Positions 2-59,444 are shown, numbered from the stretch's first letter. The stretch is DNA of 64,000 nt from Deltaproteobacteria bacterium (GCA_029565915.1 JAKQNG010000204.1:8755-72754); one strand, 5' to 3'. The notes: a model not told the origin generated them from the letters alone. Program-made: numbers and translations.

Positions 2-3000
2 CGGGACGGCAACCGGATCTACGCGGCCATCCTGGGCAGCGCCATCAACGAGGACGGGCGCACGGATGGCATCGCCCAGCCCGACAAGGACGCCCAGGTG
101 GCGGTGATGCGGGCGGCGTATGCGGACGCGGGGATCGATCCCTCCATCGTGGGACTGGTCGAGGCCCACGGGACAGGCACGGCGGCGGGGGATCCGGTTG
201 AGTGCAGCAGCATCGGACAGGTCATCGGCGCGGGGCGCACGGATCGGTGCCTCATCGGCTCGGTGAAGAGCAACATCGGCCACACGGAGCTGGCCAGCGG
301 CAGCGCGGGTCTCATCAAGCTGGCCCTCTCGCTCTTTCACGGGCAGGCCCCGCCGGTGGTCCACTTCCGCACGCCCAATCCGAAAATCGATTTCGACGGA
401 TGGCGACTGCAGGTGCCCGTGCGCGTGACGCCGGTTCCTGCAAGGGAAGGCATCCGTTACGGCGCCGTGAATTCCTTCGGCTTCGGTGGCGCCAATGCCC
501 ACCTGGTGCTGCGCTCCGTGCCGCCGGCAGAGACCCGGACCACCGGAGAAGGCCCTCTCTGTGCGCCCCTGTTCATTTCCGCGCGCTCCGAAAAATCCCT
601 GCGCCGCCTGGCGGGTGCCTACGCGGATCTTCTCGAAAAGGGCATCGACGGGCGGGAGCTGGCGCAGCAGGTCATCCGTCATCGATCCCGCCTCGAAGAC
701 GGACTCGCCCTGACGGACCCCCGGCATGCGGATGCGGCGGCCCGCCTGCGGAACTTTGCCAGGGGCAGGGACAGCGAGGGTGTCATCCCGGGTCGCCGGC
801 AGTTGCCGGAAAAGGGACAGACGGCGTTCGTGTTTTCCGGCCAGGGTCCCCAGTGGTGGGGCATGGGGCGGGAGCTGTTTTCCGCCGGGGGCGTCTACCG
901 GGATACAGTAGAAGAAGTGAGTGACCTGCTGAAACAAATCGGCTGGCTGAAAGAAGAAGGCAGCGATCTGGTCGCCGAGCTGCACAGGGACGAGGCATCG
1001 TCGCGGATGAACGAGACCGCCGTGGTCCAGCCGGCCCTGTTTGCCCTCCAGCTGGGGCTGGCGCGGCTCTGGATGTCCCACGGCGTCATGCCCGACATGG
1101 TGGTGGGCCACTCCATCGGCGAAGTGGCGGCGGCCTGTGTGAGCGGCGCCCTGACGGTTGCCGAGGCGGTGAAGGTGGTGTACTGGCGCAGCCGTTGTCA
1201 GTCCCGAGCAGCGGGGCGCGGCCGGATGCTGGCCGTGGGGCTTTCCGCGGAAGACGCCAGTGGCGCGATTGGGACCTTCGGCGGAAAAATTGACGTGGCG
1301 GCAATCAACGGGCCGGCCATGGTCACCCTGGCGGGCGACGCCGATGCCCTGGCCCTGCTGGCCCGCGGCCTGGAGGAGCGGGGCGTGTTCGTGCGCTTCC
1401 TGGTGGTGGACGTGCCGTTCCACAGCCACCTCCTCGACGATGTGGCCCGGGCCTTCTGCGAGGAGGTGCCCGCCATTGTGTCGTCGCCACCCCGCATCCC
1501 GCTCTATTCCACGGTGACCGGCCTTCCCGTGGAGGGCGCGGTCCTCGACAATGACTACTGGGCCGCCAACATCCGACAGCCGGTGCAGTTCTACCCCACT
1601 GTCCAGCGGATGGCCCGGGACGGCGCCGCCGCCTTCATCGAGATGAGCCCCCACCCGATTCTCGCCAACGGCCTGACCGCGGCCCTGTCCGCAGCGGGCA
1701 CAAAGGGCATCGTGATTTCCTCCCTGCGGCGGAAGGAACCGGATATTCCCACCTTTTCCGGAAACTTCTGCGCCCTGTGGCTGGCGGGCGGCGGCATCGA
1801 TCGAACGGTGTTCGGCCCCGGCGGTGCCCACCTGCGCGAACCCCTTCCCGCCTACCCGTTTGCGGAGGAGCGCTTCTGGCTCGAATCACCGGAGGCCCGC
1901 GCGGACCGCATCGGCACGAGAGTCCACGCCCACCTCGCCTCCTGCACCTCTGCCGCGGACGACGGGAACGATCAAATCTGGCAGGTGGAGCTGGACGCCC
2001 GCTGCGCCCCGTACATCCGGGATCACCGGGTGCAGGGCCCTCTGGTGTTTCCCGGGGCGGGACACGTGGATCTGGCCCTTGCCGCGGGCATGGCGTCCTT
2101 CGGTGACCGCTTGTGCTTTCTCGAAGACATCGAGTTCATCCGTCCCCTGTTCGTCCGGGAAGACGGAGAACCCGACGCCGTGCAGCTCCACGTGGTGGGC
2201 GACGAGGGAGACTACACCATCGCGGGGCGGACGGCGGAAAGGGACACGCCCTGGACCATTTTTTCGAAAGGCCGCATGAACTGCCTCGGCGAGGCATTCT
2301 GCACCGAACCCGTGTCCCTGAAGATGCTGAAGGCCCGCATTGTCCACCCGGTGGCCCTTCCGCCCCTGTTTGACGTGCTTGATCGGGGCGGACTGGTACT
2401 GGGCGACACGTTCCGGGGCATCCGCGCCCTGTGGCGGGGCGAAGGGGAATCCCTGGCGCGCATCGAGGCCCATCCGTCCATTGTGCACTCCCTGGCCCGT
2501 CACTGCATCCATCCGGCCCTCCTCGACGCCGGCTTCCAGTCCGCCTTCGGCATCCTCGCGCAGGAGGAGCGCATGGGCGTGTACATCCCGCGCCGCATCG
2601 GACGGGTGCGCTTTGCCGGCCCGCCCGCAGGAACGGTGCTGTACGCATGGGCCCGGGCGGCTGGCACGGACCGGGAACACCTGCGCGTGGATATCCGCAT
2701 CTTCAACGAGGACGGCAGCGACGTGTTGCAGGTGGAAGGGTTCGAAGGACAATACCTGAAGGGCTCGCGGGGCGAAGTGGACGCGGTCGACAGCCTGTTC
2801 TACCGCTATGAGCTCCGCCCCTGTGCGCGGCGCGACGAGCTGGTCACCCACCGGTTGGGCGCTGCCCTCGCACCTCCGGTTCCGGTGGACGAGGCCGTGC
2901 GCCGGACAATGGACCGCCACCGCGCCGATCCCCTGTCTGCCCGATTCTTCGACGCCCTCTCGCCGGCCATGGACGAACTGGCGATGGGTGTCATCCTCGA

Positions 3001-6000
3001 CGCCCTCCGATCACTGGATTCGACGTTGGCCGACGGTGCCTTCATCGACGGGTCCCGGCTGCTCGATCGGCTGGGCGTCGCGGAGCGGCACGAACGGCTC
3101 CTCCACGCCATGTTCGATCACCTCGTTGGCGCGGGCCTGGCCCGCCGGGAGTCCGCCGGGTGGCGCATGTCGGAATGGCCGAAAAAGGATGTCCGTCTGG
3201 TGGTGGCCAGGGCACAAACCGATCTGGCGCCTTTTGCCCGCGAAATTGAATTCTTCGCCCGGACCGGCGCCGAACTCGCCGCCGTGCTGCGGGGAGAAAC
3301 GGATCCGGGGGACGTGCTCTTTGCGGGAAACCGGTTTGACGAACTGGCCGACTACTACGCCAACTCCTTCACCACCGTCCGCATCAACCAGATGGCCGCT
3401 GACGCCTTCTGCGCGCTCCTTTCCACGGTTCCCGCCGGTCGTCCCCTGCGGGTGCTGGAGCTGGGCGCGGGCACCGGCGGCCTGACCCGGCACCTCCTGC
3501 CCCTGGTGGAAGAGCGGAACGGCACGTACCTGTTCACGGACCTGTCGCCCCTGTTCCTCGCCCGGGCGAGGGAAACCTTCAAGTACAACCCGGCAATGGA
3601 GTTCGCGGTGCTGGACATCGAAACGGATCCCGCTGCCCAGGGACAGATCCCTCACAGCTGGGACATCGTCGTCGCCTCGAACGTCCTTCACGCCACGGAG
3701 GACCTGCGCCGCACGCTGGCAAACTGTCGCTCCCTCCTGTGCGACAATGGCGTACTGTGCCTCGTCGAAGTGACAAGGGCGCCTCGATATCTCGATCTCA
3801 GCTTCGGCATGACCGAAGGCTGGTGGCGTTTCCGGGACGATGTGCGGACCGATCGCTGCACCCTGTCGGCGGAGGCCTGGCGCAGCGTGCTCGCGGAGTC
3901 CGGCTTTCCGGACGTGGCCGATTTCAGCGACGGCGAAGGACCGGATGCGGTGGCCCAGACACTGTTCGTTGCCCGGGCGCGAAGTGCTGCACAGGGAGAG
4001 CGGTTGGATCCGCGCCGTCCGAACGGCATCTGGCTGATCCTCGGCGACAATCGGGGCGTGTCCGCGGCGGTATCGGCCCTCCTCCGGGAGCGGGGCGATC
4101 GATGCATCCGCCTCACCTGCGCATCGAAAACGGCACCGACCGGTGTAGATCGCTTCGATTTCGATCCCGCCTGTCCGGACGCCCTCATCGACCATCTGCG
4201 GACCTTCGACGGACCTCTGCTGGGGGCACTGCACACCGCTTCGCTCGACCTGCCGCCCATCGAGGACAGCGACCCGACGGCGCTGCTGCGTGCGCAGGGA
4301 GACGGCGCCTGGTCGGCCATCGGCCTCGGCCGGGTGCTGTCCGCCGTGGGCAACGAGTCGTTTCTGTGGCTGGTCACCGCCGGTGTGCACGGCCCGACGC
4401 CGGCCCTGTCCCGGTCGCCCATGTGGGGTCTGGGTCGGGTGATGATGAACGAGCTCACCGGTGTGGCCGTGCGGCTGCTGGACGTGGACGGCGCCCTGCG
4501 GGTGGAGGACTGCGCGCGGATCGTGCAGGAGATGTGTGCGCCCTGTGCGGCGCCTTTCGAAGAAGAAATTGTTCTGCGGGACACGGGCCGCTTCGCAAAC
4601 GTCCTGGTGCGGGATCACCGGCCAAGGCGGATCGCCCGGGCCGTGCGGACGATTCCCTCCTGCGGGGCGACGGTGTCCCTGCGCCGGTCGTCCTCCTTTG
4701 TGCTGGACGATTGCATTTTCGTACCGTCGGACACGGCGATCTGCAGTGACGACGACGTAGCCATCGACGTGCATGTCGCGGGACTCAATTTCCGGGATGT
4801 GATGGTGGCCGGCGGAACCCTGCCGCGGGAAGCGGTGGAGGGCGGGCTTTTCGGCGATGCCCTCGGACTGGAGTGCGCGGGCATCGTGACGCAATGCGGC
4901 AGGCATGTCTCCCATGTGCGGGTGGGGGATGCGGTCATGGCCCTCGCCCGGGGGACCCTGTCGGGGCGCGTGGTCGCCCGGGGCGTTCTCACCCGGAAAA
5001 TTCCTTCGGGAATGGGGATGGCAGACGCCGCCGCCCTGCCTATGGCCCTGCTCACCGCCTGGTATTCGCTGGTGACCCTGGGCCGCCTGGAAGCGGGAGA
5101 GAGGGTGCTCATCCACGGGGCCGCCGGCGGGGTGGGCCTCGTGGCCGTTCAGCTGGCACAGGCCATGGGCGCTGAGGTATTCGCCACGGCGTCCAGGCCC
5201 AAGCACGACCTGCTGCGGGAACTGGGCGTCCGCTACGTGTTTGATTCCCGATCCGCCGCCTGGGCGGACGGGGTGGACGCCGCCGCGGAAGGGCGAGGGG
5301 TCAACGTGGTGCTGAACTCTCTCTCCGGCGTCCAGCTCACGCGGGGGCTGCGCCTGCTGGCGCCCATGGGTCGCTTCATCGAAATCGGCAAGGTGGACCT
5401 GTACGCAAACCGGCGCCTGGCCATGGGACTGTTGAAGGACAACGGCGCCTGGTTCAGTGTGGATATTGATCGGTTGCTGGTGCAGGCCCCGCAGAAGATG
5501 GCTGCCGCGTTCGATGAGGCCCTGCATTTCTTTGCGGTGCGCCGGTGGCCCGCACTGTCCGTGTCCGTGCATCCCTTGTCCGGGGCCGCTGATGCACTGG
5601 CCCTCATGGCAAAGGGCAACCATCGCGGTAAAATCGCGCTGGCCGCTGCGGATGTGCCGGTACACCCGGCCGAACACCTGACCGTGGCCAGGGACGGGGT
5701 ATTTCTCATCGCCGGGGGAACCCGGGGCTTCGGCCTTGCCGTGGGGACGTTTCTCGCGGACCGCGGTGCCCGGCACCTCGCCCTGCTGTCCCGGGGTGGC
5801 CTGCGAGGGGAAGAGGAAACCCGCGCGGTGGCCGCGCTGCGCCACCGGGGTGTGAATGTGGAAATTTTTGCGACAGACGTGACCGATCGCCTTGCTGTGG
5901 AGCGGGTGATTGCCGCCATTCATCGGGAGGAGCGTCCTCTGCGCGGCGTGTTCCAGTCCACGCTCGTGCTGGACGACGCCATGCTCGACCGGATGACCCG

Positions 6001-7549
6001 CCCCCAGCTGGACGGGCCCATGGCCCCCAAAGTGGCGGGCACCTGGAACCTGCACCTCGCCACGATCGGCATCCCCCTCGACTGGTTCGTCTCGTTTTCG
6101 TCCATCTCGTCCATTTATGGATTTCCCGGACAGGCGAACTATGCGGCAGCCAACCGGTTCCTGGACGATTTTGCCCTGTACCGTCGCTCCCTGGGGCTCC
6201 CCGGCACCACCATCAACTGGGGGGCACTGCAGGGCGCCGGATTCGTGGAACGCTCGGCCGCGGTGCGCAGTTTCCTCTCCAACAACGGCTGGGAAACGCT
6301 GACGCTGGAGGAGGCGCTGTCCGCCATGGAGCGCGTGCTGCTCGAAGGCCACCCGCAGATGGCCGTGTTCCGTGCGGACTGGTCCACCGTGGGACGCTCT
6401 TTCCCGGCCGGGTTGTCGTCCCTGCGGTTTGCCCATCTGCACGGCGCGGGTGCCGCCGAAAAGGACGACGGTGACCTGCGCGTGGCACTGACGGCGGCAG
6501 CTCCGGCGGCGCGGGCGATGCTGCTGCAGGGGTTCATTGCCGGGGCCACAGGGGCCATCATCGGTGCGGACGGCGCAAAGGTGGATCGACAGACGCCCCT
6601 CAACCGGCTGGGCCTCGATTCCCTGATGGCCAATCAGCTGCGCAGCGTACTGACCTCCCGCACGGGGGTCGAAATTTCTCTCATGCAGATCATGGCCGGG
6701 CCCACCATTGCGGATCTGGCCAACGAAATGGCATCCCGGTTCGAGAACACGGCGACGTCAGGCAGTGATCGTTCCGGTGGACAATGGGTGACGCGGGTCA
6801 CACCGGTTGCTTCACCGCAACTGCGGCTCTTCTGCCTGCCCTATCTGGGCGCCGGCGCCTCGATCTATTCGCGTTGGCAGGTGGGAGAAAACGTGGAGGT
6901 CTGTGCCATCGCCCTTCCCGGACGGGAAGAGCGCATCGGGGAGCCGCCTCTGACAGATGCCCATGAGTTGATCGAAACCATGGCCGGGGCTCTTCTGCCT
7001 CTGCTGGATGTGCCCTTTGCCATTTACGGCCACAGCTTCGGTGGAAACCTGGCCTTCAGCCTGGCGTCCTTCCTGCAGGAACGCCACGGAAAGGTACCCG
7101 ACCGCGTCTTCATCGGCGCCGCCGTGCCGCCGGGGATCGACAATCCCCTTGAAGAAGAGTTCCGCATTGCCGACAAGGATGAGGCCGCACGCCTCTCTGA
7201 CGACGCCCTGCGGGCGCTGCTCCAACGGCTCGGCGCACCGTCGGCGCTGATTCATGATGAAGCGGCGTTTTCCCGGATGGCACCGGCCCTGCGGGCGGAT
7301 CTGGCTATCGCCAAACAGCGTTTATTTCCGTCGGATCACCGTCTCCGCTGTCCCATCGTGGCCATTGCAGCCAGGGGTGACCACCTCTACAGCGAACAAC
7401 TTCTGCGTCACTGGCAACGGCATTCGGATGACTTTTCCCTGGAGGTTGTGAACGGCGGACACCTCTTCGTGCACGAAGACGAAGCAATGAAACACATACT
7501 GAAAATAATGTCACATCGATGGATCACACCGGCCCTGCGCTCGGCCTGA
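2..7549 (+). CDS. Type I polyketide synthase, 5'-truncated at the window edge. Domain order: KS (C-terminal part) - AT - DH - C-methyltransferase - ER - KR - ACP - thioesterase.
   Basis: The reading frame is open from nt 2 (RDGNRIYAAILGSAINEDGR... is a KS-like sequence). AT GHSIGE plus VPFHSH (malonyl-type). DH HxxxGxxxxP (HRVQGPLVFPGAGH). SAM motif LELGAGTGG. ER LIHGAAGGVGLVAVQLA. KR IAGGTRGFGLAVG. ACP LGLDSLMANQLRS. TE GHSFGG. Stop at 7547-7549. Confidence 0.9.
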   Translation, partial: RDGNRIYAAILGSAINEDGRTDGIAQPDKDAQVAVMRAAYADAGIDPSIVGLVEAHGTGTAAGDPVECSSIGQVIGAGRTDRCLIGSVKSNIGHTELASGSAGLIKLALSLFHGQAPPVVHFRTPNPKIDFDGWRLQVPVRVTPVPAREGIRYGAVNSFGFGGANAHLVLRSVPPAETRTTGEGPLCAPLFISARSEKSLRRLAGAYADLLEKGIDGRELAQQVIRHRSRLEDGLALTDPRHADAAARLRNFARGRDSEGVIPGRRQLPEKGQTAFVFSGQGPQWWGMGRELFSAGGVYRDTVEEVSDLLKQIGWLKEEGSDLVAELHRDEASSRMNETAVVQPALFALQLGLARLWMSHGVMPDMVVGHSIGEVAAACVSGALTVAEAVKVVYWRSRCQSRAAGRGRMLAVGLSAEDASGAIGTFGGKIDVAAINGPAMVTLAGDADALALLARGLEERGVFVRFLVVDVPFHSHLLDDVARAFCEEVPAIVSSPPRIPLYSTVTGLPVEGAVLDNDYWAANIRQPVQFYPTVQRMARDGAAAFIEMSPHPILANGLTAALSAAGTKGIVISSLRRKEPDIPTFSGNFCALWLAGGGIDRTVFGPGGAHLREPLPAYPFAEERFWLESPEARADRIGTRVHAHLASCTSAADDGNDQIWQVELDARCAPYIRDHRVQGPLVFPGAGHVDLALAAGMASFGDRLCFLEDIEFIRPLFVREDGEPDAVQLHVVGDEGDYTIAGRTAERDTPWTIFSKGRMNCLGEAFCTEPVSLKMLKARIVHPVALPPLFDVLDRGGLVLGDTFRGIRALWRGEGESLARIEAHPSIVHSLARHCIHPALLDAGFQSAFGILAQEERMGVYIPRRIGRVRFAGPPAGTVLYAWARAAGTDREHLRVDIRIFNEDGSDVLQVEGFEGQYLKGSRGEVDAVDSLFYRYELRPCARRDELVTHRLGAALAPPVPVDEAVRRTMDRHRADPLSARFFDALSPAMDELAMGVILDALRSLDSTLADGAFIDGSRLLDRLGVAERHERLLHAMFDHLVGAGLARRESAGWRMSEWPKKDVRLVVARAQTDLAPFAREIEFFARTGAELAAVLRGETDPGDVLFAGNRFDELADYYANSFTTVRINQMAADAFCALLSTVPAGRPLRVLELGAGTGGLTRHLLPLVEERNGTYLFTDLSPLFLARARETFKYNPAMEFAVLDIETDPAAQGQIPHSWDIVVASNVLHATEDLRRTLANCRSLLCDNGVLCLVEVTRAPRYLDLSFGMTEGWWRFRDDVRTDRCTLSAEAWRSVLAESGFPDVADFSDGEGPDAVAQTLFVARARSAAQGERLDPRRPNGIWLILGDNRGVSAAVSALLRERGDRCIRLTCASKTAPTGVDRFDFDPACPDALIDHLRTFDGPLLGALHTASLDLPPIEDSDPTALLRAQGDGAWSAIGLGRVLSAVGNESFLWLVTAGVHGPTPALSRSPMWGLGRVMMNELTGVAVRLLDVDGALRVEDCARIVQEMCAPCAAPFEEEIVLRDTGRFANVLVRDHRPRRIARAVRTIPSCGATVSLRRSSSFVLDDCIFVPSDTAICSDDDVAIDVHVAGLNFRDVMVAGGTLPREAVEGGLFGDALGLECAGIVTQCGRHVSHVRVGDAVMALARGTLSGRVVARGVLTRKIPSGMGMADAAALPMALLTAWYSLVTLGRLEAGERVLIHGAAGGVGLVAVQLAQAMGAEVFATASRPKHDLLRELGVRYVFDSRSAAWADGVDAAAEGRGVNVVLNSLSGVQLTRGLRLLAPMGRFIEIGKVDLYANRRLAMGLLKDNGAWFSVDIDRLLVQAPQKMAAAFDEALHFFAVRRWPALSVSVHPLSGAADALALMAKGNHRGKIALAAADVPVHPAEHLTVARDGVFLIAGGTRGFGLAVGTFLADRGARHLALLSRGGLRGEEETRAVAALRHRGVNVEIFATDVTDRLAVERVIAAIHREERPLRGVFQSTLVLDDAMLDRMTRPQLDGPMAPKVAGTWNLHLATIGIPLDWFVSFSSISSIYGFPGQANYAAANRFLDDFALYRRSLGLPGTTINWGALQGAGFVERSAAVRSFLSNNGWETLTLEEALSAMERVLLEGHPQMAVFRADWSTVGRSFPAGLSSLRFAHLHGAGAAEKDDGDLRVALTAAAPAARAMLLQGFIAGATGAIIGADGAKVDRQTPLNRLGLDSLMANQLRSVLTSRTGVEISLMQIMAGPTIADLANEMASRFENTATSGSDRSGGQWVTRVTPVASPQLRLFCLPYLGAGASIYSRWQVGENVEVCAIALPGREERIGEPPLTDAHELIETMAGALLPLLDVPFAIYGHSFGGNLAFSLASFLQERHGKVPDRVFIGAAVPPGIDNPLEEEFRIADKDEAARLSDDALRALLQRLGAPSALIHDEAAFSRMAPALRADLAIAKQRLFPSDHRLRCPIVAIAARGDHLYSEQLLRHWQRHSDDFSLEVVNGGHLFVHEDEAMKHILKIMSHRWITPALRSA

Positions 7550-7649
7550 ACTCTCGGAAGAATCGATGCGGTCAGAATCCCACGGGCACGAGATACCCGG
7601 GCGGATAACGTCGCAAAATTCTTTCCGTCAGTGAAAGAGGCGACCCGGA

Positions 7650-8786
7650 CTATTCCAGAATGATGAACGCGTCGCAGGGGCAGGAAACCGAAACGGCGAC
7701 ATTGCCGGTCTTGATGGATGCGCAGGCGTCTCCCACGAGCTCAATCTGGGACGGCGAGTTCATCTGCCATCCGTCCGGGTCCTCAAAGTCGAGGCGGGAC
7801 ACGTCGTCGCCGGCCGTGATGGAGACGTCACAGCTGCTCTGTTTGCCGTCCACCATTTCGCCCGTCAGATCGAGGACGCAGCTGCGCACGCCGTTGATAA
7901 TGGTGTCGAACGCCTCCACGAGTCCCTGTCCGTCCGTGGCTTCCCACCACTGCGCGTCCGTCATGGCACCCACGCCCGCATTGGCCAGATTCTGCATGTG
8001 CGACGCGGTGGTGTCTGCCCCGACGCTGATGATGTAGGTGGACACGCCGGCCGCAAAGGCCGCCGCCACCTGTTCTTCCGAATAGGCCCGGGCCTCCGCC
8101 GTCTGGGGGTCGGGAACCGCGCAGGTGTCCGGATCGCCGTCCGTGGCCAGCACGATGACCTTCGGACCGGGCTCGTCGATGGCCAGCAGCTCCGCGGCGA
8201 TGAGCTGGACCGACTCGGCGGTGGGGGTGTCCTCGCCCATGTCCGCCGGATCGAACAGATCATAAATGGCCGGGTAGTTGTCGAGGGCCGGCGCCACGGT
8301 GGTCAGCAGGGGGCATTCGTCGGGAACGGACCCGCCGTTGTAGCTGGTGTACAGGGCGATGCCGAAGCGCACCCGATCATCGAGCTGGAGAACGATGCCG
8401 TTTGTTTCGTCAATGAGCACCTCCTTCACCACCTCCCAGCGGGACGGGTCCCCGTGACCGGGAAACCCCGCGTCCATGCTGCTGGATTGATCGATGAGCA
8501 GGTACACCGTGGGAATCTGCGGGGTGAACGCCACATCCGCTTCGCCACAGACGGCCCCGGTGTCGGTATCGCTGTCCGTGTCGGTATCGCTGTCCGTGTC
8601 GGCATCACTGTCCCCGTCAGTGTCTCCGTCGGTGTCGGCATCACTGTCGCCGTCGGTGTCGCCGTCGGTGTCCGCATCGGTGTCCCCGTCGGACCCTCCC
8701 AGGTCGTCGCTGCAGGCGCCGGGCAGAAGCGCGATGCCAATCCACAGCGCCAGAAAGAAATAGAGAGCCTTTTGAGCGTTTTTCAT
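7650..8786 (-). CDS. Secreted vWA-domain lipoprotein with a (D-T/S-D-G/A)n acidic linker.
   Basis: Lipobox LLPGAC. Long DTDGDTDGDSDADTD repeat. MIDAS motif LLIDQSSSMD. RBS AAAGGAGA lies upstream of the ATG at 8786 (alternative ATG at 8804). Confidence 0.75.
   Translation of the reverse strand: MKNAQKALYFFLALWIGIALLPGACSDDLGGSDGDTDADTDGDTDGDSDADTDGDTDGDSDADTDSDTDTDSDTDTGAVCGEADVAFTPQIPTVYLLIDQSSSMDAGFPGHGDPSRWEVVKEVLIDETNGIVLQLDDRVRFGIALYTSYNGGSVPDECPLLTTVAPALDNYPAIYDLFDPADMGEDTPTAESVQLIAAELLAIDEPGPKVIVLATDGDPDTCAVPDPQTAEARAYSEEQVAAAFAAGVSTYIISVGADTTASHMQNLANAGVGAMTDAQWWEATDGQGLVEAFDTIINGVRSCVLDLTGEMVDGKQSSCDVSITAGDDVSRLDFEDPDGWQMNSPSQIELVGDACASIKTGNVAVSVSCPCDAFIILE
8561..8690. repeat. Tandem repeats (18-nt units, two copies exact) encoding the acidic linker of the vWA lipoprotein.
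   Basis: gtcggtatcgctgtccgt occurs twice exactly at 8562-8597, followed by degenerate copies (gtcggcatcactgtcc..., gtcggtgtcgccgtc...). Confidence 0.7.
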
Positions 8787-14798: not shown

Positions 14799-15279
14799 AC
14801 ACCCACATCACCTGCAGGGTGCGCGCCCCATCGGGCGTTTCGTCCCCCGCGTCGTATCCCCGGTCCGACAGCTCCATCATCACGATGAGATTGGACGCGT
14901 CATCGCTGACTGCCCGCATGGTGATGGCGCAGTTCACGGTGACCACCACGCCGCCATCAAAGGAGGAAGCATCGCCCCGCACCGGCTCGCTGCACGAGAA
15001 CGTGTCCTTGAGCTGGACCGACGAACTGAGCTGTTCAATCAGGGTGATGCGGCCTTCATATCTCGAAAAATCGTCGTCGTCCGGATCCCAGACGGTCACT
15101 ACGAATTCGGTGAGCGTGTTGTTTTCGGCATAGTTGACCCCTTCCACCGGCGGATCTGCCGAAACGAACTGAGGGGGCTGGTTCCGCCGCAGGCTGAATT
15201 CGATTTCGTCCGACACCACGCAGGCGTCGGCGAGGACGGAAACGAGGATCAGAACGGCGACGGGGACAACGGGCTTCAT
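14770..15279 (-). CDS. Small secreted lipoprotein (169 aa).
   Basis: Signal peptide [20 protein letters not shown]. Its ATG overlaps the stop of the upstream activator gene (ATGA). Confidence 0.55.
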   Translation of the reverse strand: MKPVVPVAVLILVSVLADACVVSDEIEFSLRRNQPPQFVSADPPVEGVNYAENNTLTEFVVTVWDPDDDDFSRYEGRITLIEQLSSSVQLKDTFSCSEPVRGDASSFDGGVVVTVNCAITMRAVSDDASNLIVMMELSDRGYDAGDETPDGARTLQVMWVYEIFAQNLL

Positions 15280-17141
15280 GCCTTTTCCAGATAGCGGTAG
15301 ATGGTGCGCGGATCCACATCCAGCTCTTCGGCGGTCTGTACCCGGTTTCCACCGTTCTTTTCGAGGGCATCGAGGATGTACTGCCGCTGGAATCGCTCCC
15401 GTGCCTCCGCCAGGGTCTCTCCCTTCCGCGCCGTCTCTTCGCCCAGATCGAGATCATCGGGCCCCACCATTGAGCCGTCGCACAGGATGACCGCCTTCTT
15501 GATGCGGTTTTCCAGCTCCCGCACATTGCCGGGCCACGAGTGGCGTCGGATGGCGGCCATGGCGCCGGGACTGAACCCTTTCGCGGCGGAACCGAATTCG
15601 TCCGCGTATCGCTGCAGCAGATAGCGGGCCAGCAGGAGCACATCGTCTCCCCGCTCCCGCAGGGCCGGCAGCTCGATGTGTATGACGTTCAGCCGATAGT
15701 ACAGGTCTTCCCGGAACGCGCCCCGTCGGATTTCCTCCTCCAGGTTGCGGTTGGTCGCGGCCAGCACGCGGATGTCCAGGGTTTCGGTCTTCGTGGCGCC
15801 GACTTTCACCACCTGATGTTCCTGCAGTACCCGCAGAATTTTCACCTGCAGGGCCATGGGCATCTCGCCGATTTCGTCGAGGAAGATCGTGCCTTTGTCC
15901 GCAGCCTGGAACTTGCCGGGCCGGGTGGCTTCCGCACCGGTGAACGCACCTTTCACGTGACCGAAGAACTCCGATTCCATGAGGGTTTCGGGGATGGCGC
16001 CGCAGTTCACGGTGACAAAGGGACCCTGGCGCCGCTGACTCCGGCGGTGGATTTCCCGGGCGATGAGTTCCTTCCCGGTACCCGTTTCGCCGCCGATGAG
16101 CACGGACACTTCCGTGGCCGCCACCTTTTCCACCGTCTTGAACACCTGCTCCATGACCGGCGATGCACCGATAATCTCGCCGAACCGCTGATTGTCCAGC
16201 TCCCGGGACAGGGCCTCGTTGCGCAGCTTCAGCTCGTTCAGCAGCAGGGCGTTCTGCACGATGAGGGAGGCCTGGGCGGCGAACACCTTCAGCAGCTCCA
16301 GAGTGCCGGGCTCGAACAGGCCCCGCACCGTGTCGTTGCCCAGATAGATCAGCCCCAGCAGCTCGTCCTTGTGCTGCAGGGGCGCACACATCACCGAGCT
16401 GAGTTTCAGGTTGATGACGGATTGGGCGTGGGCGAACTTGTCGTGGCTCTGGGCGTCCGATACGATGATGGCGCTGCGGCTCTGCACCACCTGCGCCACG
16501 ATGCTGTCTGACAGCTGGCTCACCGCGGAGCCCAGGTTTTCCCGGTGCAGGTTTCTGGCCACCTTGATGATGGGCTCCCCGTCTTCAAACAGGATAAGAA
16601 ATCCCTTGGCCGCGCCCGTGATCTCGATGACACCGTCCATCAGTGCGTCGAGGACCTCGTCGACGGAGCCATGGCTGAAGAGGGAACTGGTGAACTCCTG
16701 CAGCTTGTGAAGGCCCGCCAGCTCCGCGCCCCGCCCGGATTCCCTGGAACGCACCGCGGATTCCGCCAGCATGCTGAATACGAAATCCGCCCGGCCCAGG
16801 GCAAATCGGTCCTGGTGGGCGAGGCGGCTCCGGCGCTTCTTTTTACCGTTCAGCACAAAGTCGTCGCCGTCCTCGATGCAGGCAAGGGAAAAATCCTTCC
16901 CGTCGAACACGAGCTGCACGTGGTAGGGCGCCAGGCCCAGATCCCTGACGACCACATCGTTTTCGGGGGCGGCGCCGATGGTGGTGATCGCTTTGGCAAT
17001 GGCGATACTGCTGCGATTGCCGTCTGTTGATCGCCAGCTGAGCGTGGGCATGAATCGTTCTTCCTGTTGGGACGGAGACGCCGGAATCCGCCTGTTGCCA
17101 TCTGTCTGCCGCAGTGTAGGACAAAACGGCAGTTCGCTCAA
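15276..17141 (-). CDS. Sigma-54-dependent transcriptional activator with N-terminal FHA and GAF domains (FHA-GAF-AAA+ sigma-54 activation domain-HTH).
   Basis: AAA+ motif [21 protein letters not shown] motif ([15 protein letters not shown]). C-terminal Fis-type HTH ([19 protein letters not shown]). N-terminal FHA-like segment and a GAF region. Confidence 0.9.
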
Positions 17142-17203: not shown

Positions 17204-17635
17204 ATGAGGCTGTGGTCGCTCCATCCCCAACATCTCGACGGCAAAGGACTCGTGGCTCTGTGGCGGGAGGGGCTGCTGGCCCGGGCGGTACTTGCCGGCC
17301 AGACCGTCGGCTACCGGCATCATCCCCAGCTCATCCGTTTCCGCGCCCTTCCCGAACCTCTGCGGGCCCTCGACGGCTACCTCTCCCGCGTGTTCGACGA
17401 AGCGTCTTCGCGGGGCTATCGGTTCGACCGGACAAAAATCAACTATCAGGCCGGCTGCCATTCCCTGATTTTCGTCTCCACCGGTCAGCTCGCCCATGAA
17501 TGGGAACATCTGCTCCTCAAATTGAAGCGTCGGGCTCCATCGAAGTGGCAACAGGAACAGGACAACCGGCCGTCGCCCCATCCGTGTTTCGCCGTGCTGG
17601 ACGGTCCGATGGCGGAATGGGAAAAGGTGAAGTGA
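17204..17635 (+). CDS. Pyrimidine-dimer DNA glycosylase (T4 endonuclease V / DenV-like, Pyr_excise family).
   Basis: Begins MRLWSLHPQHLDGKGLVALWREGLLA, the characteristic N-terminus of this family. The ORF-track start at 17153 adds 17 poorly supported residues. Confidence 0.65.
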   Translation: MRLWSLHPQHLDGKGLVALWREGLLARAVLAGQTVGYRHHPQLIRFRALPEPLRALDGYLSRVFDEASSRGYRFDRTKINYQAGCHSLIFVSTGQLAHEWEHLLLKLKRRAPSKWQQEQDNRPSPHPCFAVLDGPMAEWEKVK

Positions 17636-17636
17636 A

Positions 17637-18578
17637 TCAATCGATGAGGTTGAATTCGCGGACGATCTGGAAACCGAACACCAGCTCCTTGAAGCCGCGC
17701 CGGGAATTGGCAACGATGCCATCCGCGCTCATGTACTGGGAATTGGCCACCACCAGGGAAAACGAGTGGCGGTGGGTGAGCACCCGGGCAGCAAATCCGA
17801 AAACCGGGTAATCCGCGCCGAATCCGGCCACATTGGCGGCGATTTCCGCATTGAGTGAAAAGCGCGGAATCGGACGCCATTCCAGATATCCGAGCACTGC
17901 CGCCGACGGATCCGGAGACTCCACAACCTTGGTTTCGCCGGAGGAATCCGTGTGGAATGCGAATCCCGCACCGAAGAGCAGACATTTCCACAGACGTCGA
18001 TCCAGCAGGATCTGTCCAAAGAATCCCGATGCGTCCTTTGCATCCTTCTGGACGAACCAGGTGCCGCCGATGACGATGGCCGCGTTGATGTAGTGGTACT
18101 GCTGCCGGAGCAGGTTCAGCTTTGTGTCGAACTGATAGACATCAAACAGATCGGTGCCGTTGCTCAACCGGTAAAAGCCCGCGTCCAGGAAGTCGAAGAT
18201 GCCGTAGCGCAGGCCGAGGCCCATTTTCAGGTTGCCCGCGTCCAGCCCCAGATAGTCGAACCAGGCGTCCTCCCCGCTGATGAACGAGGCATGGGCCCGA
18301 TGGTCAACCGTGAGCACGAGGGCGCCCTTCCGGGCGGTCAGCGTCGTCGGTACGTTGATGACCCGATCGGTCCGCGGCACGTTTTTTCCAATGTAGTGGA
18401 TGCCCAGGTGGCGATCTTCCGCCGCGGGCGCGGACACCGGTTGTTCCGTGTCGGCCACCGGCGTTGCCGTGCCGGATGTCCCCGATCCGTCTGCCTTTTC
18501 CTGCGCCGGCACAACGGCGGGAATCGTCATCCAGCCGGCGATGATCATCCATCGGAGCCCCTGTTGCAGCGTCGTCAT
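17637..18578 (-). CDS. Putative outer-membrane beta-barrel protein, unknown family.
   Basis: Signal peptide (MIIAGWMTIPAVVPAQE). Alternating amphipathic beta-strand-like segments. Lies 46 nt downstream of the FHA-GGDEF gene on the same strand. Confidence 0.45.
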   Translation of the reverse strand: MTTLQQGLRWMIIAGWMTIPAVVPAQEKADGSGTSGTATPVADTEQPVSAPAAEDRHLGIHYIGKNVPRTDRVINVPTTLTARKGALVLTVDHRAHASFISGEDAWFDYLGLDAGNLKMGLGLRYGIFDFLDAGFYRLSNGTDLFDVYQFDTKLNLLRQQYHYINAAIVIGGTWFVQKDAKDASGFFGQILLDRRLWKCLLFGAGFAFHTDSSGETKVVESPDPSAAVLGYLEWRPIPRFSLNAEIAANVAGFGADYPVFGFAARVLTHRHSFSLVVANSQYMSADGIVANSRRGFKELVFGFQIVREFNLID

Positions 18579-18624: not shown

Positions 18625-19566
18625 CTATTTCACGATGGAGGCCACAACCCGGTTTCTGCCTTTCTGCTTGGCCTCGTAGAGGTTTTCATCCGCCGTGCGC
18701 AGCAGGGCATCGCCGTTCATCACTCCGGCACCGCAGAGGGTGGCCGCACCGAGGCTGATGGTAACCGGCACACGAATGCCTTCTTCGGTCAGGATGCGCA
18801 GGTCCTGGACGATCTGACGCAGGCGTTCCGCCAGAGCCACCGCCCCTTCCGGCGCGATGTTGCGCGCCAGCACCACGAACTCCTCGCCGCCGTACCGGGC
18901 CGCCAGATCCTCCCCCCGCAGGGTGCGGGCCACGGCGCGAGCCACCCGGCACAGTACATCATCGCCGACGAGATGGCCCCAGGTGTCGTTTACCTTTTTA
19001 AAGTGATCGAGGTCGAACAGGATGGCGGACAGATGCGTACGGTGGCGCACGGCAAAGGACAGCTCGCTGCGGAGCATGTCGTCGAAATACCGGCGGTTGA
19101 AGACCCCGGTCAGTCCGTCCTTCACTGCGGATTCGTACATCTGCGACTGGTAGTGTTCGTCAAACGTGTCCACCCGCATGAAGCGCAGGATGGTGGAGCG
19201 GCCCAGGACCACCTTGTCCCCTTCGGAAAAGACGTGGCGCGCCACCCGTTCCCGTCCTACCCAGATGCCGTTGGTGCTGTTCATGTCTTCAATGATGCAG
19301 CGGTTCTGATCGTCGAGGACCACGCGGGCGTGAATCCTTGAAATCCCGTCATCGGAAATGATGAAATCGCACTCCTCGCCGCGGCCGATGAGCATGGGTG
19401 ATCGATCAATGATGAGGGAGCTGCCCCGGTCGATACCCTGCACCACGATGAGGGAGGGTCGCAGGGAGCTGCCCTCCCGGGCCGTGAGCATGTTCACCGT
19501 GGAGCGGTCGAAATTGAGGGTGATGTCCTCCTGCGGCAGCGCGATTTTGTCCGTTTTCTTCTGCAT
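18625..19566 (-). CDS. FHA-domain diguanylate cyclase (FHA-GGDEF).
   Basis: FHA core (LIGRGEECDFIISDDGISRIHARV...STNG). GGDEF domain with intact GGEEF and an RxxD I-site (RGED five residues upstream). Start ATG at 19566; the ORF-track N-terminal extension is rejected. Confidence 0.9.
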   Translation of the reverse strand: MQKKTDKIALPQEDITLNFDRSTVNMLTAREGSSLRPSLIVVQGIDRGSSLIIDRSPMLIGRGEECDFIISDDGISRIHARVVLDDQNRCIIEDMNSTNGIWVGRERVARHVFSEGDKVVLGRSTILRFMRVDTFDEHYQSQMYESAVKDGLTGVFNRRYFDDMLRSELSFAVRHRTHLSAILFDLDHFKKVNDTWGHLVGDDVLCRVARAVARTLRGEDLAARYGGEEFVVLARNIAPEGAVALAERLRQIVQDLRILTEEGIRVPVTISLGAATLCGAGVMNGDALLRTADENLYEAKQKGRNRVVASIVK

Positions 19567-19611
19567 GGGTCTTCCGGCAACTGGCGCCAGAATAGCGCAG
19601 GTCGGGCTTTC

Positions 19612-19640
19612 TTGACATACCTGTGGAAAGGTATTACTAT
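19612..19640 (+). promoter_or_regulatory. Near-consensus sigma-70-type promoter for the PilZ operon: TTGACA - 17 nt - TACTAT.
   Basis: TTGACA at 19612-19617 and TACTAT at 19635-19640 with a 17-nt spacer, inside an AT-rich 110-nt divergent intergenic region. RBS AGGAGA at 19664-19669. ATG at 19679. Confidence 0.5.
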
Positions 19641-19678
19641 GTAAACAATTTAAGTACATTGTAACAGGAGAAATCACA

Positions 19679-20143
19679 ATGTCACACAACAAGCGTTCCC
19701 AGTTCCGCGTGCCCGAATCCCGGCTCATCACCGAGTTTTCGAAAAACACACCTTTCGCGTCGAGCATTGTCAACCTGAGCTTCGACGGGTTGTACACGGT
19801 CAAGCCCTGCGAAAGCCTGACGACACCCCGGGGTCTCATCCAGCTCGAAATCCCGGTGCCCGAGGCAAGCGAGTCCATCTGGGCCACCGGCGAAGTGCTG
19901 TACGAGCACCACGGCGCAAAATCCGTGGGAACGGGTATCCGCCTGCGGAACATGGCGCAGTTTCACCGCAACCTGCTGCGGGATCTGGTGGAAAGCGGTC
20001 GCCGACAGGTACTGGCGGACATGCTGCAGCAGATTCTGTGGCAGCGCCAGCTCGCCCAGTATCCTACGCTGTTCGATGCCCCGGCGCCGCCGGTGACCGA
20101 GCACACGGTGCCCATGTTCCGCCTCGCGGACCTGCACCCCTGA
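19679..20143 (+). CDS. PilZ-domain c-di-GMP-binding protein.
   Basis: RxxxR motif RSQFR and (D/N)xSxxG motif NLSFDG at the expected spacing. Confidence 0.75.
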   Translation: MSHNKRSQFRVPESRLITEFSKNTPFASSIVNLSFDGLYTVKPCESLTTPRGLIQLEIPVPEASESIWATGEVLYEHHGAKSVGTGIRLRNMAQFHRNLLRDLVESGRRQVLADMLQQILWQRQLAQYPTLFDAPAPPVTEHTVPMFRLADLHP

Positions 20144-20189
20144 TTTTCGCATTGACGGCGCAGGGGCCCGGGACCTAGGCTCCAGCGCC

Positions 20190-20735
20190 ATGAACCCGGC
20201 CCCTGCCATTGATGCCCGGTCCGCCCTCCTGCGGCGGGGCGGCACCAGCTTCGCCCTCGCCGCCGTGGCATTTGCCCGGGGAACCCGGAACTGGCATGCC
20301 CTGTCTGTATCGCTCACCCATCCGGCTGATGAAATTCGATCTGTCATCGAAGAACACCCCGGTGCGGGCGCCCTCGCCGCCGCCGCAGACAGGGCCTTTT
20401 CCGACAGCCCCGGCGAACTGCCGGACTGGCTCGACGCTCTGACGGACGACGGACTGGTCCGCCTCGGCGATCGCCTGGCACCCCTCTGGCCCCCTTCGGG
20501 CGGTGCCCCGCTGCGGGGACGGGACGGCGGCATCGCGTCCCTGGCCATCGCGTTCTGCCGGCGCATGGATCGCATCCGGGCCATGGGCGACCGGTTGCCT
20601 CCGGAGGATGCCCGACAGCTTCTGCGCCGGGCCCGGCTCGCGGCCGTCCAGGTGGAACCCGGCGCGCCGAGCGCCATGAAACGGCAGATCCGCTCGCTGG
20701 TGGAAGGCGGCAACCATGGGACGACTCATCCGTAA
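20190..20735 (+). CDS. Hypothetical protein (181 aa), Ala/Arg-rich, unknown function.
   Basis: Intact ORF between the PilZ and FliH-like genes. Its 3' end overlaps the next gene by 20 nt. Confidence 0.4.
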   Translation: MNPAPAIDARSALLRRGGTSFALAAVAFARGTRNWHALSVSLTHPADEIRSVIEEHPGAGALAAAADRAFSDSPGELPDWLDALTDDGLVRLGDRLAPLWPPSGGAPLRGRDGGIASLAIAFCRRMDRIRAMGDRLPPEDARQLLRRARLAAVQVEPGAPSAMKRQIRSLVEGGNHGTTHP

Positions 20736-21165
20736 AACCGACCTGCCCGTATCGCCGCCGCTGCTCTCCTGTCCGGACCCGGCCCTCCTGTTTCTCCTGG
20801 AGGCCCGGGCCGAAGGGGAACGGTTCATCGCGCAGGCGAAGGAGGACCTCGTGCAACTGGCCGTGACCATGGCCGGCCGGCTGGCGGGCACGACCCTGGC
20901 CCTCGATGCCGCGCAACGGGAATCCCTTTACAAAGACGCTGTCAAACGGGCAGGCGCCCGCTCCTGTGTACTGCGGGTCCATCCGCAGGATGCGACGTCG
21001 ACTTCGCTCTGCAACCGGGCAGAGGATGCGGGATTCGACGTCGTGGCGGACGAATCCCTCATACCGGGGGACTGCGTGGTGGACGCGGGCGGCGTGACGG
21101 TAGACCGGCGGTTGTCCGTCCTGTTGTCCGTCATGGAAGAGGCCCTGCGGCGGAGGCTGCCGTGA
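20716..21165 (+). CDS. FliH/YscL/HrpE-family-like protein (peripheral-stalk or ATPase-regulator homologue), orphan.
   Basis: The C-terminus CVLRVHPQDA...GFDVVADESLIPGDCVVDAGGVTVDRRLSVLLSVMEEAL parallels the FliH C-terminus (LRVHPDDL...GGC.V....G.LDASV). Confidence 0.5.
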   Translation: MGRLIRKTDLPVSPPLLSCPDPALLFLLEARAEGERFIAQAKEDLVQLAVTMAGRLAGTTLALDAAQRESLYKDAVKRAGARSCVLRVHPQDATSTSLCNRAEDAGFDVVADESLIPGDCVVDAGGVTVDRRLSVLLSVMEEALRRRLP

Positions 21166-22091
21166 CGCCGTCGGGAACCCGTCGCCCCTGGGTCAACGGG
21201 TTGCTCTTCGCGCTGACCGTGCTGTCGGTGTTCGGCGCCGGCGTGTTCCACCTGTCCGCCCGCACCATGGACGAGGCCCTCTGGAACGGCGTTGTCTTCG
21301 CCGCCTCGGTCATGGGCATCCTGTGCGCCCACGAAGCCGGACACTACCTGATGGCCAGGAAGAACCGGGTGGATGCATCCCTGCCCTATTTCATTCCCGT
21401 GCCGCCGTTCTTTTCCCTGTTCGGCACCCTCGGCGCCGTCATCGTGATGCGCGGCCGCATCCGCTCGCGGGACGCACTGATGGAGGTGGGCGCGGCGGGA
21501 CCTCTGGCGGGCATGGCGGTGGCGTTGCCCCTGCTGCTCGTCGGGCTGGCGCGCTGTCCGTTGATGAAGATTCCCGAGGCGGCATGGATGGAGGGCCAGT
21601 CCCTGTTGTACCTGGCGGCCAAATCCATGGTGGTGGGCCCCATCCCGCCCGGCTGGGACGTGGCCCTGGATCGCTCCCCCATGGCGTTCGCCGGCTGGTT
21701 CGGCATGCTGATCACCATGCTGAACCTGCTGCCCATCGGTCAGCTGGACGGCGGACACATCTTTTACGCCCTGTTCGGAGACCTCCACGAAAAAGTATCG
21801 CGGCTGTTCCACCGCCTCCTGTTCGCCTTCGGACTCGGCGTGGCAACCTTCTACGGGCTCGACGCCTACGGGCGGGGACTCGCGCCGGATGCCGTGGCGG
21901 AAGCGGCGATACCGGGTTTCAGCTGGATTTTCCTGGGGATCATCATGGCCGTCGCCTTCCGCAGGAAAGGATTTTCCCACCCTCCCACGGACGATCGGAT
22001 CCTGTCTCCGCGCGGCCGCGCAGTCGGCATCGCCTGCCTCGTCCTCTTTGCCGTTACGTTCATGCCCGTGGTCATGCGGCCGATCGTCTGA
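21162..22091 (+). CDS. Site-2 protease family (M50) intramembrane zinc metalloprotease.
   Basis: HEAGHYLMA (HExxH). NLLPIGQLDGGHIFY (LDG motif). Polytopic membrane protein. GTG start overlaps the upstream stop (GTGA). Confidence 0.8.
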   Translation: MTPSGTRRPWVNGLLFALTVLSVFGAGVFHLSARTMDEALWNGVVFAASVMGILCAHEAGHYLMARKNRVDASLPYFIPVPPFFSLFGTLGAVIVMRGRIRSRDALMEVGAAGPLAGMAVALPLLLVGLARCPLMKIPEAAWMEGQSLLYLAAKSMVVGPIPPGWDVALDRSPMAFAGWFGMLITMLNLLPIGQLDGGHIFYALFGDLHEKVSRLFHRLLFAFGLGVATFYGLDAYGRGLAPDAVAEAAIPGFSWIFLGIIMAVAFRRKGFSHPPTDDRILSPRGRAVGIACLVLFAVTFMPVVMRPIV

Positions 22092-42893: not shown

Positions 42894-43124
42894 ATGAACG
42901 AAATGTTACTGCAGGGGCTTGAACTGATGGCAGCCGGCATGGGAACGGTCTTTCTGTTTCTCATCATCATGGTCTACGTGATGCACCTGTCGGGCGTGAT
43001 CCTCCGGCGGATGGGCACCGGCGAGACCGCGTCACCGGGTGGCGGCAGCGCGGGCGCCGGCGGGGATTCTCTTGAACAGGTTGCTGTGGCAATTGCAGCG
43101 GCGAAACGTCATACGCAGGGTTGA
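42894..43124 (+). CDS. oadG: Oxaloacetate decarboxylase gamma subunit.
   Basis: 76 aa with one N-terminal TM helix (LMAAGMGTVFLFLIIMVYVM). Located immediately upstream of oadA. Confidence 0.7.
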   Translation: MNEMLLQGLELMAAGMGTVFLFLIIMVYVMHLSGVILRRMGTGETASPGGGSAGAGGDSLEQVAVAIAAAKRHTQG

Positions 43125-43137
43125 AAGGACAACGAAC

Positions 43138-44946: not shown

Positions 44947-44973
44947 TTGTTCCTTCTGCAAGGAGAAGTTCCC

Positions 44974-50376: not shown

Positions 50377-50381
50377 CTTGT

Positions 50382-51848: not shown

Positions 51849-51976
51849 GGTCATTCTCCTGTGGTGACGGGTTGACGGTTCCGGGTATCCTGCCAGAACA
51901 GGGCCCCATGTAAAGAGGCGGAACGCCCGGAGGAATTGGGCTGGATTCCGCGCCCGCTTCAATGATATGACACGCG

Positions 51977-52010
51977 TCAAACGACACACGAATCGTTTTT
52001 CAAACGACAC
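51977..52010 (+). promoter_or_regulatory. Two exact TCAAACGACAC direct repeats (23 nt start-to-start) 10-43 nt upstream of the P-type ATPase start; candidate operator.
   Basis: Repeat copies at 51977-51987 and 52000-52010, with a third partial copy GACACGCG just upstream. In the divergent intergenic region between the reductase and ATPase genes. Confidence 0.4.
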
Positions 52011-52019
52011 GAGGTACCC

Positions 52020-59443: not shown

Positions 59444-59444
59444 C

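Follow-up and report, generated by a model that had tools for sequence, protein, structure and literature searches.

Gene content of the locus

The region studied here lies in a stretch of 64,000 nucleotides from a bacterium catalogued as Deltaproteobacteria (GCA_029565915.1, JAKQNG010000204.1:8755-72754); the whole stretch is called the window below, and positions are counted from its first letter. Between 18625 and 22091 the window carries five genes, which on the evidence given below are all real: they encode a diguanylate cyclase with FHA and GGDEF domains, a PilZ protein, an orphan protein of 181 aa, a FliH-family protein of 149 aa and a membrane protease of the M50 (site-2 protease, S2P) family. 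The last four form an operon in this order on the plus strand, head-to-head with the cyclase gene on the minus strand (Table 1). The five family assignments had been proposed in a first-pass annotation made from the sequence alone, and they were confirmed by Pfam searches and motif inspection, with the PilZ protein scoring just under the gathering threshold of its family.

Table 1. Features of the segment 18625-22091 of the window
Feature	Position	Strand	Basis
FHA-GGDEF diguanylate cyclase, DgcB-like, 313 aa	18625..19566	-	Pfam, motifs, 6HBZ match
Sigma-70-like promoter TTGACA-17-TACTAT, 5' of the PilZ operon	19612..19640	+	Consensus scan, 10/12 positions
Predicted sigma-70-like promoter GTGACA-16-TACAAT (TG-extended), toward the cyclase	19658..19685	-	Consensus scan, 10/12
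Stand-alone PilZ protein, 154 aa	19679..20143	+	PF07238, motifs, orthologues
All-helical (predicted) orphan-family protein, 181 aa	20190..20735	+	Homologues at the same position in relatives
Short FliH/SctL-family protein, 149 aa	20716..21165	+	PF02108, fold model
M50 site-2-protease family intramembrane metalloprotease, 309 aa	21162..22091	+	PF02163, motifs

The genes of the operon are closely packed. Direct reading of the sequence showed that the FliH-like gene starts within the gene of the 181-aa protein, with an overlap of 20 nt (20716-20735), and that its stop codon shares the tetranucleotide GTGA (21162-21165) with the start of the M50 gene. These overlaps and the plus-strand promoter had been claimed before and were found as described, the promoter in a consensus scan which returned three promoter-like sites in 4 kb against an expectation of 0.4. 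The PilZ start codon (ATG) is preceded at a distance of 9 nt by AGGAG. The cyclase and PilZ genes are 112 bp apart, and in this intergenic stretch the two promoter matches are opposed and face each other, with predicted start sites approximately 4 nt apart. If both promoters are real, transcription of the cyclase and of the operon would be expected to interfere.

A Pfam sweep of 49 open reading frame (ORF) translations detected no genes for FliI/SctN, for other flagellar or injectisome components or for V-, A- or F-type ATPases in the 64-kb window, in agreement with the earlier statement on the FliI/injectisome ATPase, flagellar genes and V/A-ATPase; C-ring and stator genes were likewise not found in this sweep. 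The same proteins are present on metagenome contigs from JGI, ENA, Logan and NCBI, of which the longest measures 92 kb. Among its named relatives, the M50 protein is closest to proteins from metagenome-assembled genomes (MAGs) labelled Deltaproteobacteria, Polyangia or Myxococcota, which indicates that the host is an uncultured Myxococcota-affiliated bacterium.

The short FliH-like protein and its orphan partner

The 149-aa product matches PF02108 with 36.7 bits (cut-off 24.1) over residues 33-134. An exhaustive HMMER search with this protein gave 352 matches, which fell into two groups. About 30 of them constitute a subfamily of 145-156 aa whose members can be aligned over their full length and begin with MGR[VIL][IV]K (alignment A1); within this N-terminal motif G2 and K6 are nearly invariant, and there is no SpoA-domain gene nearby. 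The rest, 190-300 aa long and aligned only in their C-terminal part, are classical FliH/SctL proteins. Word-indexed searches for homologues of the FliH-like and 181-aa proteins recovered their own clusters alone, and relatives were obtained only with the exhaustive HMMER search.

Relationship to FliH was supported by profile and structure comparisons. When the subfamily profile was compared with the PDB, it matched Salmonella FliH of the FliH-FliI complex (5b0o) with an E-value of 5e-9, and hhalign aligned the subfamily with classical FliH at 99.6% probability. The AlphaFold2 (AF2) model computed with alignment A1 had a predicted local distance difference test score (pLDDT) of 91.4 and consists of a 42-residue helix (22-63), a second helix (65-79) and a C-terminal alpha/beta globule. 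In a Foldseek search the best matches of this model were the FliH chains of 5b0o (E 2e-5), followed by many chains of V/A-ATPase subunit E. The possibility that the protein is an unrelated coiled coil, which had been named as a point to check, can thus be dismissed: the product passes the PF02108 cut-off and its model folds like FliH and subunit E. At the same time the protein scored far under the NCBIfam equivalog cut-offs, with 33.7 bits versus 279 for the best FliH model and 18 versus 78.7 bits for the SctL model TIGR02499. Judged by these comparisons, the FliH-like proteins are a distinct, shortened subfamily and not orthologues of flagellar FliH or injectisome SctL.

What the subfamily shares with FliH and SctL (YscL, HrpE) is the PF02108 domain, a predicted long helix followed by a C-terminal alpha/beta globule, and the conserved pattern VHPxD...D..[LV]..G[GD]C.[VI]....G..[VI]D. 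Its N-terminal start, of the type [RK][VI][IL]K, also resembles that of some classical FliH proteins from flagellar loci. The differences concern length and gene context. The protein has 149 residues, whereas FliH and SctL have approximately 210-260, and the central variable region is missing. On the 3' side it is followed by the M50 gene, whereas fliH and sctL are followed by fliI and sctN, and on the 5' side the place of fliG is taken by an orphan gene for a helical protein of approximately 180 aa. With subunit E of V/A-type ATPases the model shares the overall fold (Foldseek probability 1.0, query-normalised TM-score approximately 0.6), but there is no match at the sequence level and neither a subunit G partner nor ATPase genes lie nearby; of the two, FliH is the nearer in sequence. 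Members of the FliH, SctL and subunit E families are dimeric stalks, whose C-terminal globule grips the N-terminus of an ATPase subunit and whose N-terminus docks on a membrane-associated complex. To our knowledge, no role other than that of a stalk in rotary or export ATPases has so far been described for them.

The gene directly upstream of the short FliH-like gene always encodes a protein of approximately 180 aa. Homologues of the 181-aa protein with 32-39% identity were identified in this position, directly 5' of the short FliH-like gene, in loci L008, L009, L092, L093, L094-L098, L101, L104, L134, L135 and L137. The 181-aa protein had no match in Pfam, NCBIfam, the PDB or PADLOC (none of the five proteins was matched by PADLOC), and a profile built from five sequences of its family returned only noise against the PDB and Pfam. 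An AF2 model made from two sequences was all-helical with a pLDDT of 50 and was not used. In flagellar operons fliG precedes fliH, and a FliG-like nature of the 181-aa protein was therefore considered. It was rejected: in hhalign comparisons with reference alignments of FliG, FliI, FliJ and FliH, which were built from the classical loci of the metagenome scan described below, the 181-aa protein reached at most 0.2% probability against each, compared to 99.6% for the positive control. No transmembrane segment was predicted in the 181-aa protein or in the FliH-like protein.

The M50 protease

The M50 protein matches PF02163 with 69.7 bits. It carries HEAGH at residues 57-61, the segment NLLPIGQLDGGH at 188-199 and a conserved HPPTDD at 273-278. 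H57, E58, H61 and D196 are invariant among 17 homologues (alignment A2), as are the HEAGH and LDGG motifs, and hydropathy analysis indicated a polytopic protein with approximately seven hydrophobic segments. The M50 domain was the only domain found, with no PDZ and no CBS domain, and the RseP equivalog model TIGR00054 gave 20.6 bits versus the required 147.55. In the loci examined no sigma or anti-sigma factor genes were conserved near the M50 gene.

S2P enzymes cleave membrane-anchored regulators. RseP (with RseA/RseB) and SpoIVFB (with BofA and SpoIVFA) are comparable to the protein studied here in that all are intramembrane zinc proteases with HExxH and LDG motifs and with small co-encoded proteins as plausible controllers. 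Unlike RseP the M50 protein has no PDZ domain, and unlike SpoIVFB it has no CBS domain. The accessory proteins encoded beside it are also of another kind: in contrast to those of RseP and SpoIVFB they are soluble and cytoplasmic, and one of them is a FliH homologue.

Conservation of the gene order

The first-pass annotation had described a unit of four genes, of which the order orphan-FliH-M50 is kept across very divergent relatives; PilZ is the part that did not stand, as it adjoins the others in only three of the eight informative loci (the window, L008 and L096) and lies two genes away in L092. The conserved unit thus consists of three genes, for the approximately 180-aa protein, the short FliH-like protein and the M50 protease, and was found in 13 divergent loci, whose GC contents range between 38 and 74%. 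Relatives carrying this cassette are L008, L009, L092, a JGI contig, L093, L094-L099 and L137 (Table 2); where it was measured, the identity of their M50 proteins to that of the window is 53-62%.

Table 2. Gene order in representative loci carrying the cassette
Locus	M50 identity to window	Gene order
L008	59%	PilZ - 172 aa - FliH - M50
L009	53%	194 aa - FliH - M50
L092	62%	PilZ - cysteine-desulfurase-like - Se/S carrier - 189 aa - FliH - M50
JGI contig	58%	As L092, without PilZ
L093	55%	196 aa - FliH - M50
L137 (NCBI MAG, 38% GC)		176 aa - FliH - M50 - Maf

The tight packing seen in the window is a property of the cassette. The junction between the 180-aa and the FliH-like genes is an overlap of 4-20 nt in all cassette loci except one, where there is a gap of 4 nt, and the FliH/M50 junctions are overlaps of 4-8 nt or a gap of 6 nt. 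A metagenome scan with a profile made from a five-sequence alignment of the FliH-like proteins separated the short family from classical FliH by context as well. All full-length matches of the short-family profile (L094-L099) had an M50 gene directly downstream, with the approximately 180-aa gene directly upstream wherever the contig reached that far; this gene was also upstream in L101 and L104. All matches confined to the C-terminal part were in classical fliF-fliG-fliH-fliI-fliJ loci.

A longer form of the FliH-family protein is encoded directly 5' of M50 in nine further loci, from Polyangiaceae, Myxococcaceae and 'delta' MAGs. In the three of these loci that were scanned the protein matched PF02108 with 47-58 bits, and a GRVVKA-like N-terminus was present in the two that were inspected. 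No recognisable 180-aa partner was found beside the long form in the nine loci. In some Polyangiaceae loci FliH and M50 lie in one stop-to-stop segment, and a fusion of the two was considered; it was rejected, as the FliH-like match is in a different frame.

These observations show that the three-gene cassette is conserved in Myxococcota-affiliated bacteria, its genes overlapping or abutting, and that the adjacency of FliH-like and M50 genes, seen in 13 + 9 independent loci, is more than chance. The FliH-like gene is the hub of the arrangement: it is always accompanied by the 180-aa gene (short form) or by M50 (both forms), and usually by both.

The flanks of the cassette vary. In L092 (3607-4979) and in the JGI 3300075153 contig (3652-5021) genes for a cysteine-desulfurase-like Aminotran_5 protein and a Se_S_carrier protein (PF11823) are directly 5' of the cassette, with stop/start overlaps; in L092 these two genes are located between PilZ and the cassette. 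Downstream of M50, L008 (8078-9784) and L009 (8070-9773) encode a protein of 567-568 aa without firm family, which has a weak DUF2207 match in L009 and is absent from the window. A sister clade with 67-68% M50 identity (L007, 5195-8745; L091, 4188-7741) has the order methyl-accepting chemotaxis protein gene, M50, convergent Fic gene.

The PilZ protein and the diguanylate cyclase

The PilZ protein scored 21.9 bits with PF07238, compared to the gathering score of 22.5. Its orthologue in L096 reached 27.6 bits and those in L008 and L092 carry precomputed PF07238 matches; with a three-sequence profile the orthologues were found at E-values from 1e-74 to 1e-88. The motifs RSQFR (RxxxR, residues 6-10) and NLSFDG (NxSxxG, residues 32-37) are conserved in three to four orthologues at the same positions, so that the residues for c-di-GMP binding, the loss of which on careful alignment had been considered beforehand, survive the comparison. 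A C-terminal helix and tail of approximately 50 residues is also conserved, with the pattern W..[QE]L...P..F.AP.P...E.TV.M. There is no transmembrane segment, and no relative of known structure was found by sequence in the PDB. With stand-alone PilZ receptors the protein shares RxxxR and [D/N]xSxxG at canonical spacing and a single barrel, and it differs from them in the additional conserved 50-residue tail and the marginal Pfam score. PilZ proteins change partners on binding of c-di-GMP.

The first-pass annotation had also drawn an analogy to YcgR-type proteins acting on the flagellar rotor. The PilZ domain, which begins at residue 4, is the only domain of the 154-aa protein. As the N-terminal YcgR/PilZN domain is lacking, the rotor-brake analogy is without basis; flagellar genes are also missing from the window. 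A second c-di-GMP-related neighbour is found in L008, where the divergent unit (2383-5326, minus strand) consists of PhoH and a GAF-HD_5 protein (HD-GYP-type, 122 bits) in place of the cyclase of the window. The latter protein is a possible c-di-GMP phosphodiesterase.

The cyclase matched GGDEF with an E-value of 6e-47 (159.8 bits) and FHA with 2e-16 (60.7 bits). As stated earlier, GGEEF (residues 226-230), an RxxD I-site (RGED, 217-220, five residues upstream) and an N-terminal FHA domain are intact, and the phosphothreonine-binding FHA residues GR / SxxH / NG are present. A longer ORF of 442 aa extends too far upstream; both the metagenome gene call and the alignment to DgcB are in accord with the ATG at 19566 as the start. 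The best PDB match covering both domains was 6HBZ, the full-length Bdellovibrio DgcB (E 1.5e-36, residues 48-308). DgcB of Bdellovibrio bacteriovorus (Bd0742) is an FHA-GGDEF protein which is activated when its own Thr-phosphorylated N-terminal tail binds to the FHA domain (PMC6733907). The two proteins have the same architecture and similar length (310 aa for DgcB), and the FHA phosphothreonine residues, GGEEF and the I-site are found in the cyclase as well. The N-terminal tail of the cyclase, approximately 45 residues long, contains T5, T16, T23 and T28, of which T16 (T16-L-N-F) conforms to the pTxx(hydrophobic) pattern preferred by FHA domains; the tails of the two proteins are not alignable by eye, and the output of DgcB in Bdellovibrio, prey invasion, is unrelated. 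The enzyme is an ordinary cyclase of the DgcB type. Among the genes of the window no Ser/Thr kinase was seen.

A homologue of the cyclase covering both domains (E 2e-62) is encoded in L081, a Myxococcales MAG, at 6916-7850 on the minus strand, convergent to an M50 orthologue. This was the sole other case of a possible cyclase-M50 link; there is no FliH-like gene in L081, and the case was treated as coincidence, although it might also hint a second time at such a link.

A possible cytoplasmic arm of an intramembrane protease

In the reading that we prefer, although we would put it at somewhat under an even chance, the protease is served by a cytoplasmic adaptor derived from FliH, with c-di-GMP input through PilZ in some lineages. 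The FliH-like protein would keep the role of its family, that of a dimeric coiled-coil stalk tethering a soluble partner to a membrane complex, but with other partners than usual. The C-terminal globule, which in the family grips the N-terminus of an ATPase, would here bind the co-translated 180-aa protein, the conserved N-terminal motif would dock on the M50 protein or its surroundings, and the FliH-like and 180-aa proteins together would constitute a cytoplasmic arm that regulates intramembrane proteolysis or presents substrates for it. In lineages that carry PilZ, the c-di-GMP-bound form of this protein may modulate the arm; the c-di-GMP-gated proteolytic switch suggested in the first-pass annotation is likewise an inference. 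In the species studied here at least part of the c-di-GMP would come from the neighbouring cyclase, which is probably switched on, as in DgcB, by Ser/Thr-kinase phosphorylation of its own N-terminal tail. The fuller evolutionary statement, that an ATPase-free homologue of the FliH/SctL/subunit E stators was taken over as the cytoplasmic arm of a site-2 protease, with the 180-aa protein as partner and gating by PilZ and c-di-GMP in some lineages, is more doubtful, and we put it forward tentatively.

Several observations weigh against an adaptor dedicated to the protease. The absence of ATPase genes was established for the 64-kb window, and a cognate ATPase may be encoded elsewhere in the genome. 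The FHA-gated cyclase, whose pairing with the operon had been regarded as part of the arrangement, is a local feature and adjoins the cassette only in the window's own species, and no PilZ gene is present in L009, L093, L098 and the JGI contig as far as their flanks are available. The two closest relatives of the FliH-like protein (P0129 and P0130; L134-L136) have kept the upstream partner and are followed by a convergent, unrelated gene, and in two lineages (L134; L135/L136) the 180-aa/FliH pair is thus found apart from M50. Conversely, the three closest M50 orthologues examined (L007, L011 and L091, 66-68% identity) are solitary, which shows that the link to the protease is separable, and members of the M50 subfamily without a FliH-like neighbour occur in Chloroflexota, Nitrospirota, Halobacterium, Sorangium So ce56 and Kofleriaceae. 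Taking into account both the split pairs and the solitary orthologues, we regard physical coupling to the protease as likely, though not as obligatory.

The main competing explanation, which we consider unlikely, is that the FliH-like protein is still a stalk or regulator of a FliI/SctN- or A/V-type ATPase encoded elsewhere, for instance of a non-flagellar type III secretion system (NF-T3SS) of Myxococcales, and that M50 is a co-expressed neighbour. The alignment of the C-terminal globule with the FliI-binding FliH_C domain of 5b0o would fit this, as would the ability of the 180-aa/FliH pair to exist apart from M50, and Myxococcales do carry conserved, reduced NF-T3SS loci (PMC3459982). Against it, no ATPase gene is present within the 64 kb or visible next to the short-family genes (for the JGI contig, in the gene table), whereas the classical fliH and sctL genes keep the order H-I-J (bioRxiv 10.1101/2021.01.01.425057, and the same metagenome scan). 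Moreover, M50 occupies the position of fliI in the 13 + 9 loci, with start/stop overlaps, and the protein is about 100 residues shorter than the usual FliH. It is less probable still that one or both of the 180-aa and FliH-like proteins are substrates of the protease, or a substrate chaperone, and not its regulators, for example a cytoplasmic factor released or destroyed by M50. S2P genes are often located beside those of their substrates or regulators, as with RseA/RseP and SpoIVFB/pro-sigma-K, and the three genes are tightly coupled in translation; S2P substrates, in contrast, are normally membrane-anchored, and neither the 180-aa nor the FliH-like protein has a transmembrane segment (maximal 19-residue hydropathy 1.05 and 1.35, respectively) or similarity to sigma or anti-sigma families.

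If the genes were functionally unrelated, brought together by an operon accident in a compact genome, M50 would be a housekeeping enzyme, and PilZ and the cyclase would act on other targets. The M50 subfamily is indeed widespread and usually solitary, PilZ and the cyclase are not universally linked to the cassette and the neighbours vary by locus. Nevertheless, the genes have stayed adjacent, their stop and start codons overlapping, in more than 20 loci that span GC contents of 38-74% and differ by approximately 50% in protein sequence, and the short family as defined by its profile occurs only in this context, which makes an accident very improbable; this explanation was already disfavoured. 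The least probable of the explanations, to which we give hardly any weight, follows the YcgR model: the FliH-like protein would be left over from a motility-type machine, and PilZ would act on that machine as a c-di-GMP brake. Control by c-di-GMP is known for the export ATPases of flagella and T3SS, and the PilZ motifs are intact, but the PilZ protein lacks the N-terminal domain of YcgR, the window holds no flagellar, C-ring or stator genes, and the 180-aa partner resembled neither FliG nor FliI nor FliJ in the hhalign comparisons.

All parts of the system belong to known families; what is new is a conserved FliH-like subfamily with a dedicated orphan partner and a protease in the gene position of the ATPase. 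A full-text literature search found no description of a FliH-S2P, PilZ-S2P or c-di-GMP-S2P unit, which accords with the earlier remark that the arrangement is undescribed. If the fuller evolutionary statement given above is true, a FliH-family protein would for the first time be seen at work outside an ATPase complex, and c-di-GMP would for the first time be linked directly to regulated intramembrane proteolysis. The exchange of an ATPase gene for that of an intramembrane protease would be a clear exaptation and would bear on the evolution of T3SS and ATPase parts. As far as we know, the regulation of PDZ-less S2P enzymes from the cytoplasmic side is poorly understood, and two candidate cytoplasmic regulators, joined in some lineages by a second-messenger receptor, offer a testable system. 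For annotation, a Myxococcota gene labelled 'Flagellar assembly protein FliH' should not be taken as evidence of a flagellum or an injectisome.

Other genes in the window

Two genes away from the FHA-containing cyclase the window encodes a second FHA regulator of 591 aa (15276-17051, minus strand), with the domain order FHA-GAF-sigma54 activator-HTH_8. The two genes between these regulators encode a pyrimidine-dimer glycosylase of the T4 endonuclease V type (17204-17635, plus strand; Pyr_excise, precomputed match on an identical contig) and a DUF5777 membrane beta-barrel protein (17637-18578, minus strand).

At 98-7549 on the plus strand there is a type I polyketide synthase module, cut by the start of the window, with the domains KS (C-terminal part)-AT-DH-methyltransferase-ER-KR-ACP-thioesterase. 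A pair of genes for the alpha and beta subunits of a Na+-translocating oxaloacetate decarboxylase is located at 43000-46362. An ORF of up to 867 aa (50382-52985, minus strand) contains rubredoxin-like domains of the rubrerythrin type, a pyridine-nucleotide-disulphide oxidoreductase and a Rubredoxin_C domain; its true start may be downstream, as the first Pfam match begins near residue 380 and as the 3' end of the ORF overlaps an FAD-synthetase ORF (49399-50658). Finally, genes for an ABC ATPase, a GldG-like ABC_transp_aux protein and a DUF4340 protein follow each other at 56182-61538 on the plus strand, in the arrangement of gliding-associated ABC transporters.

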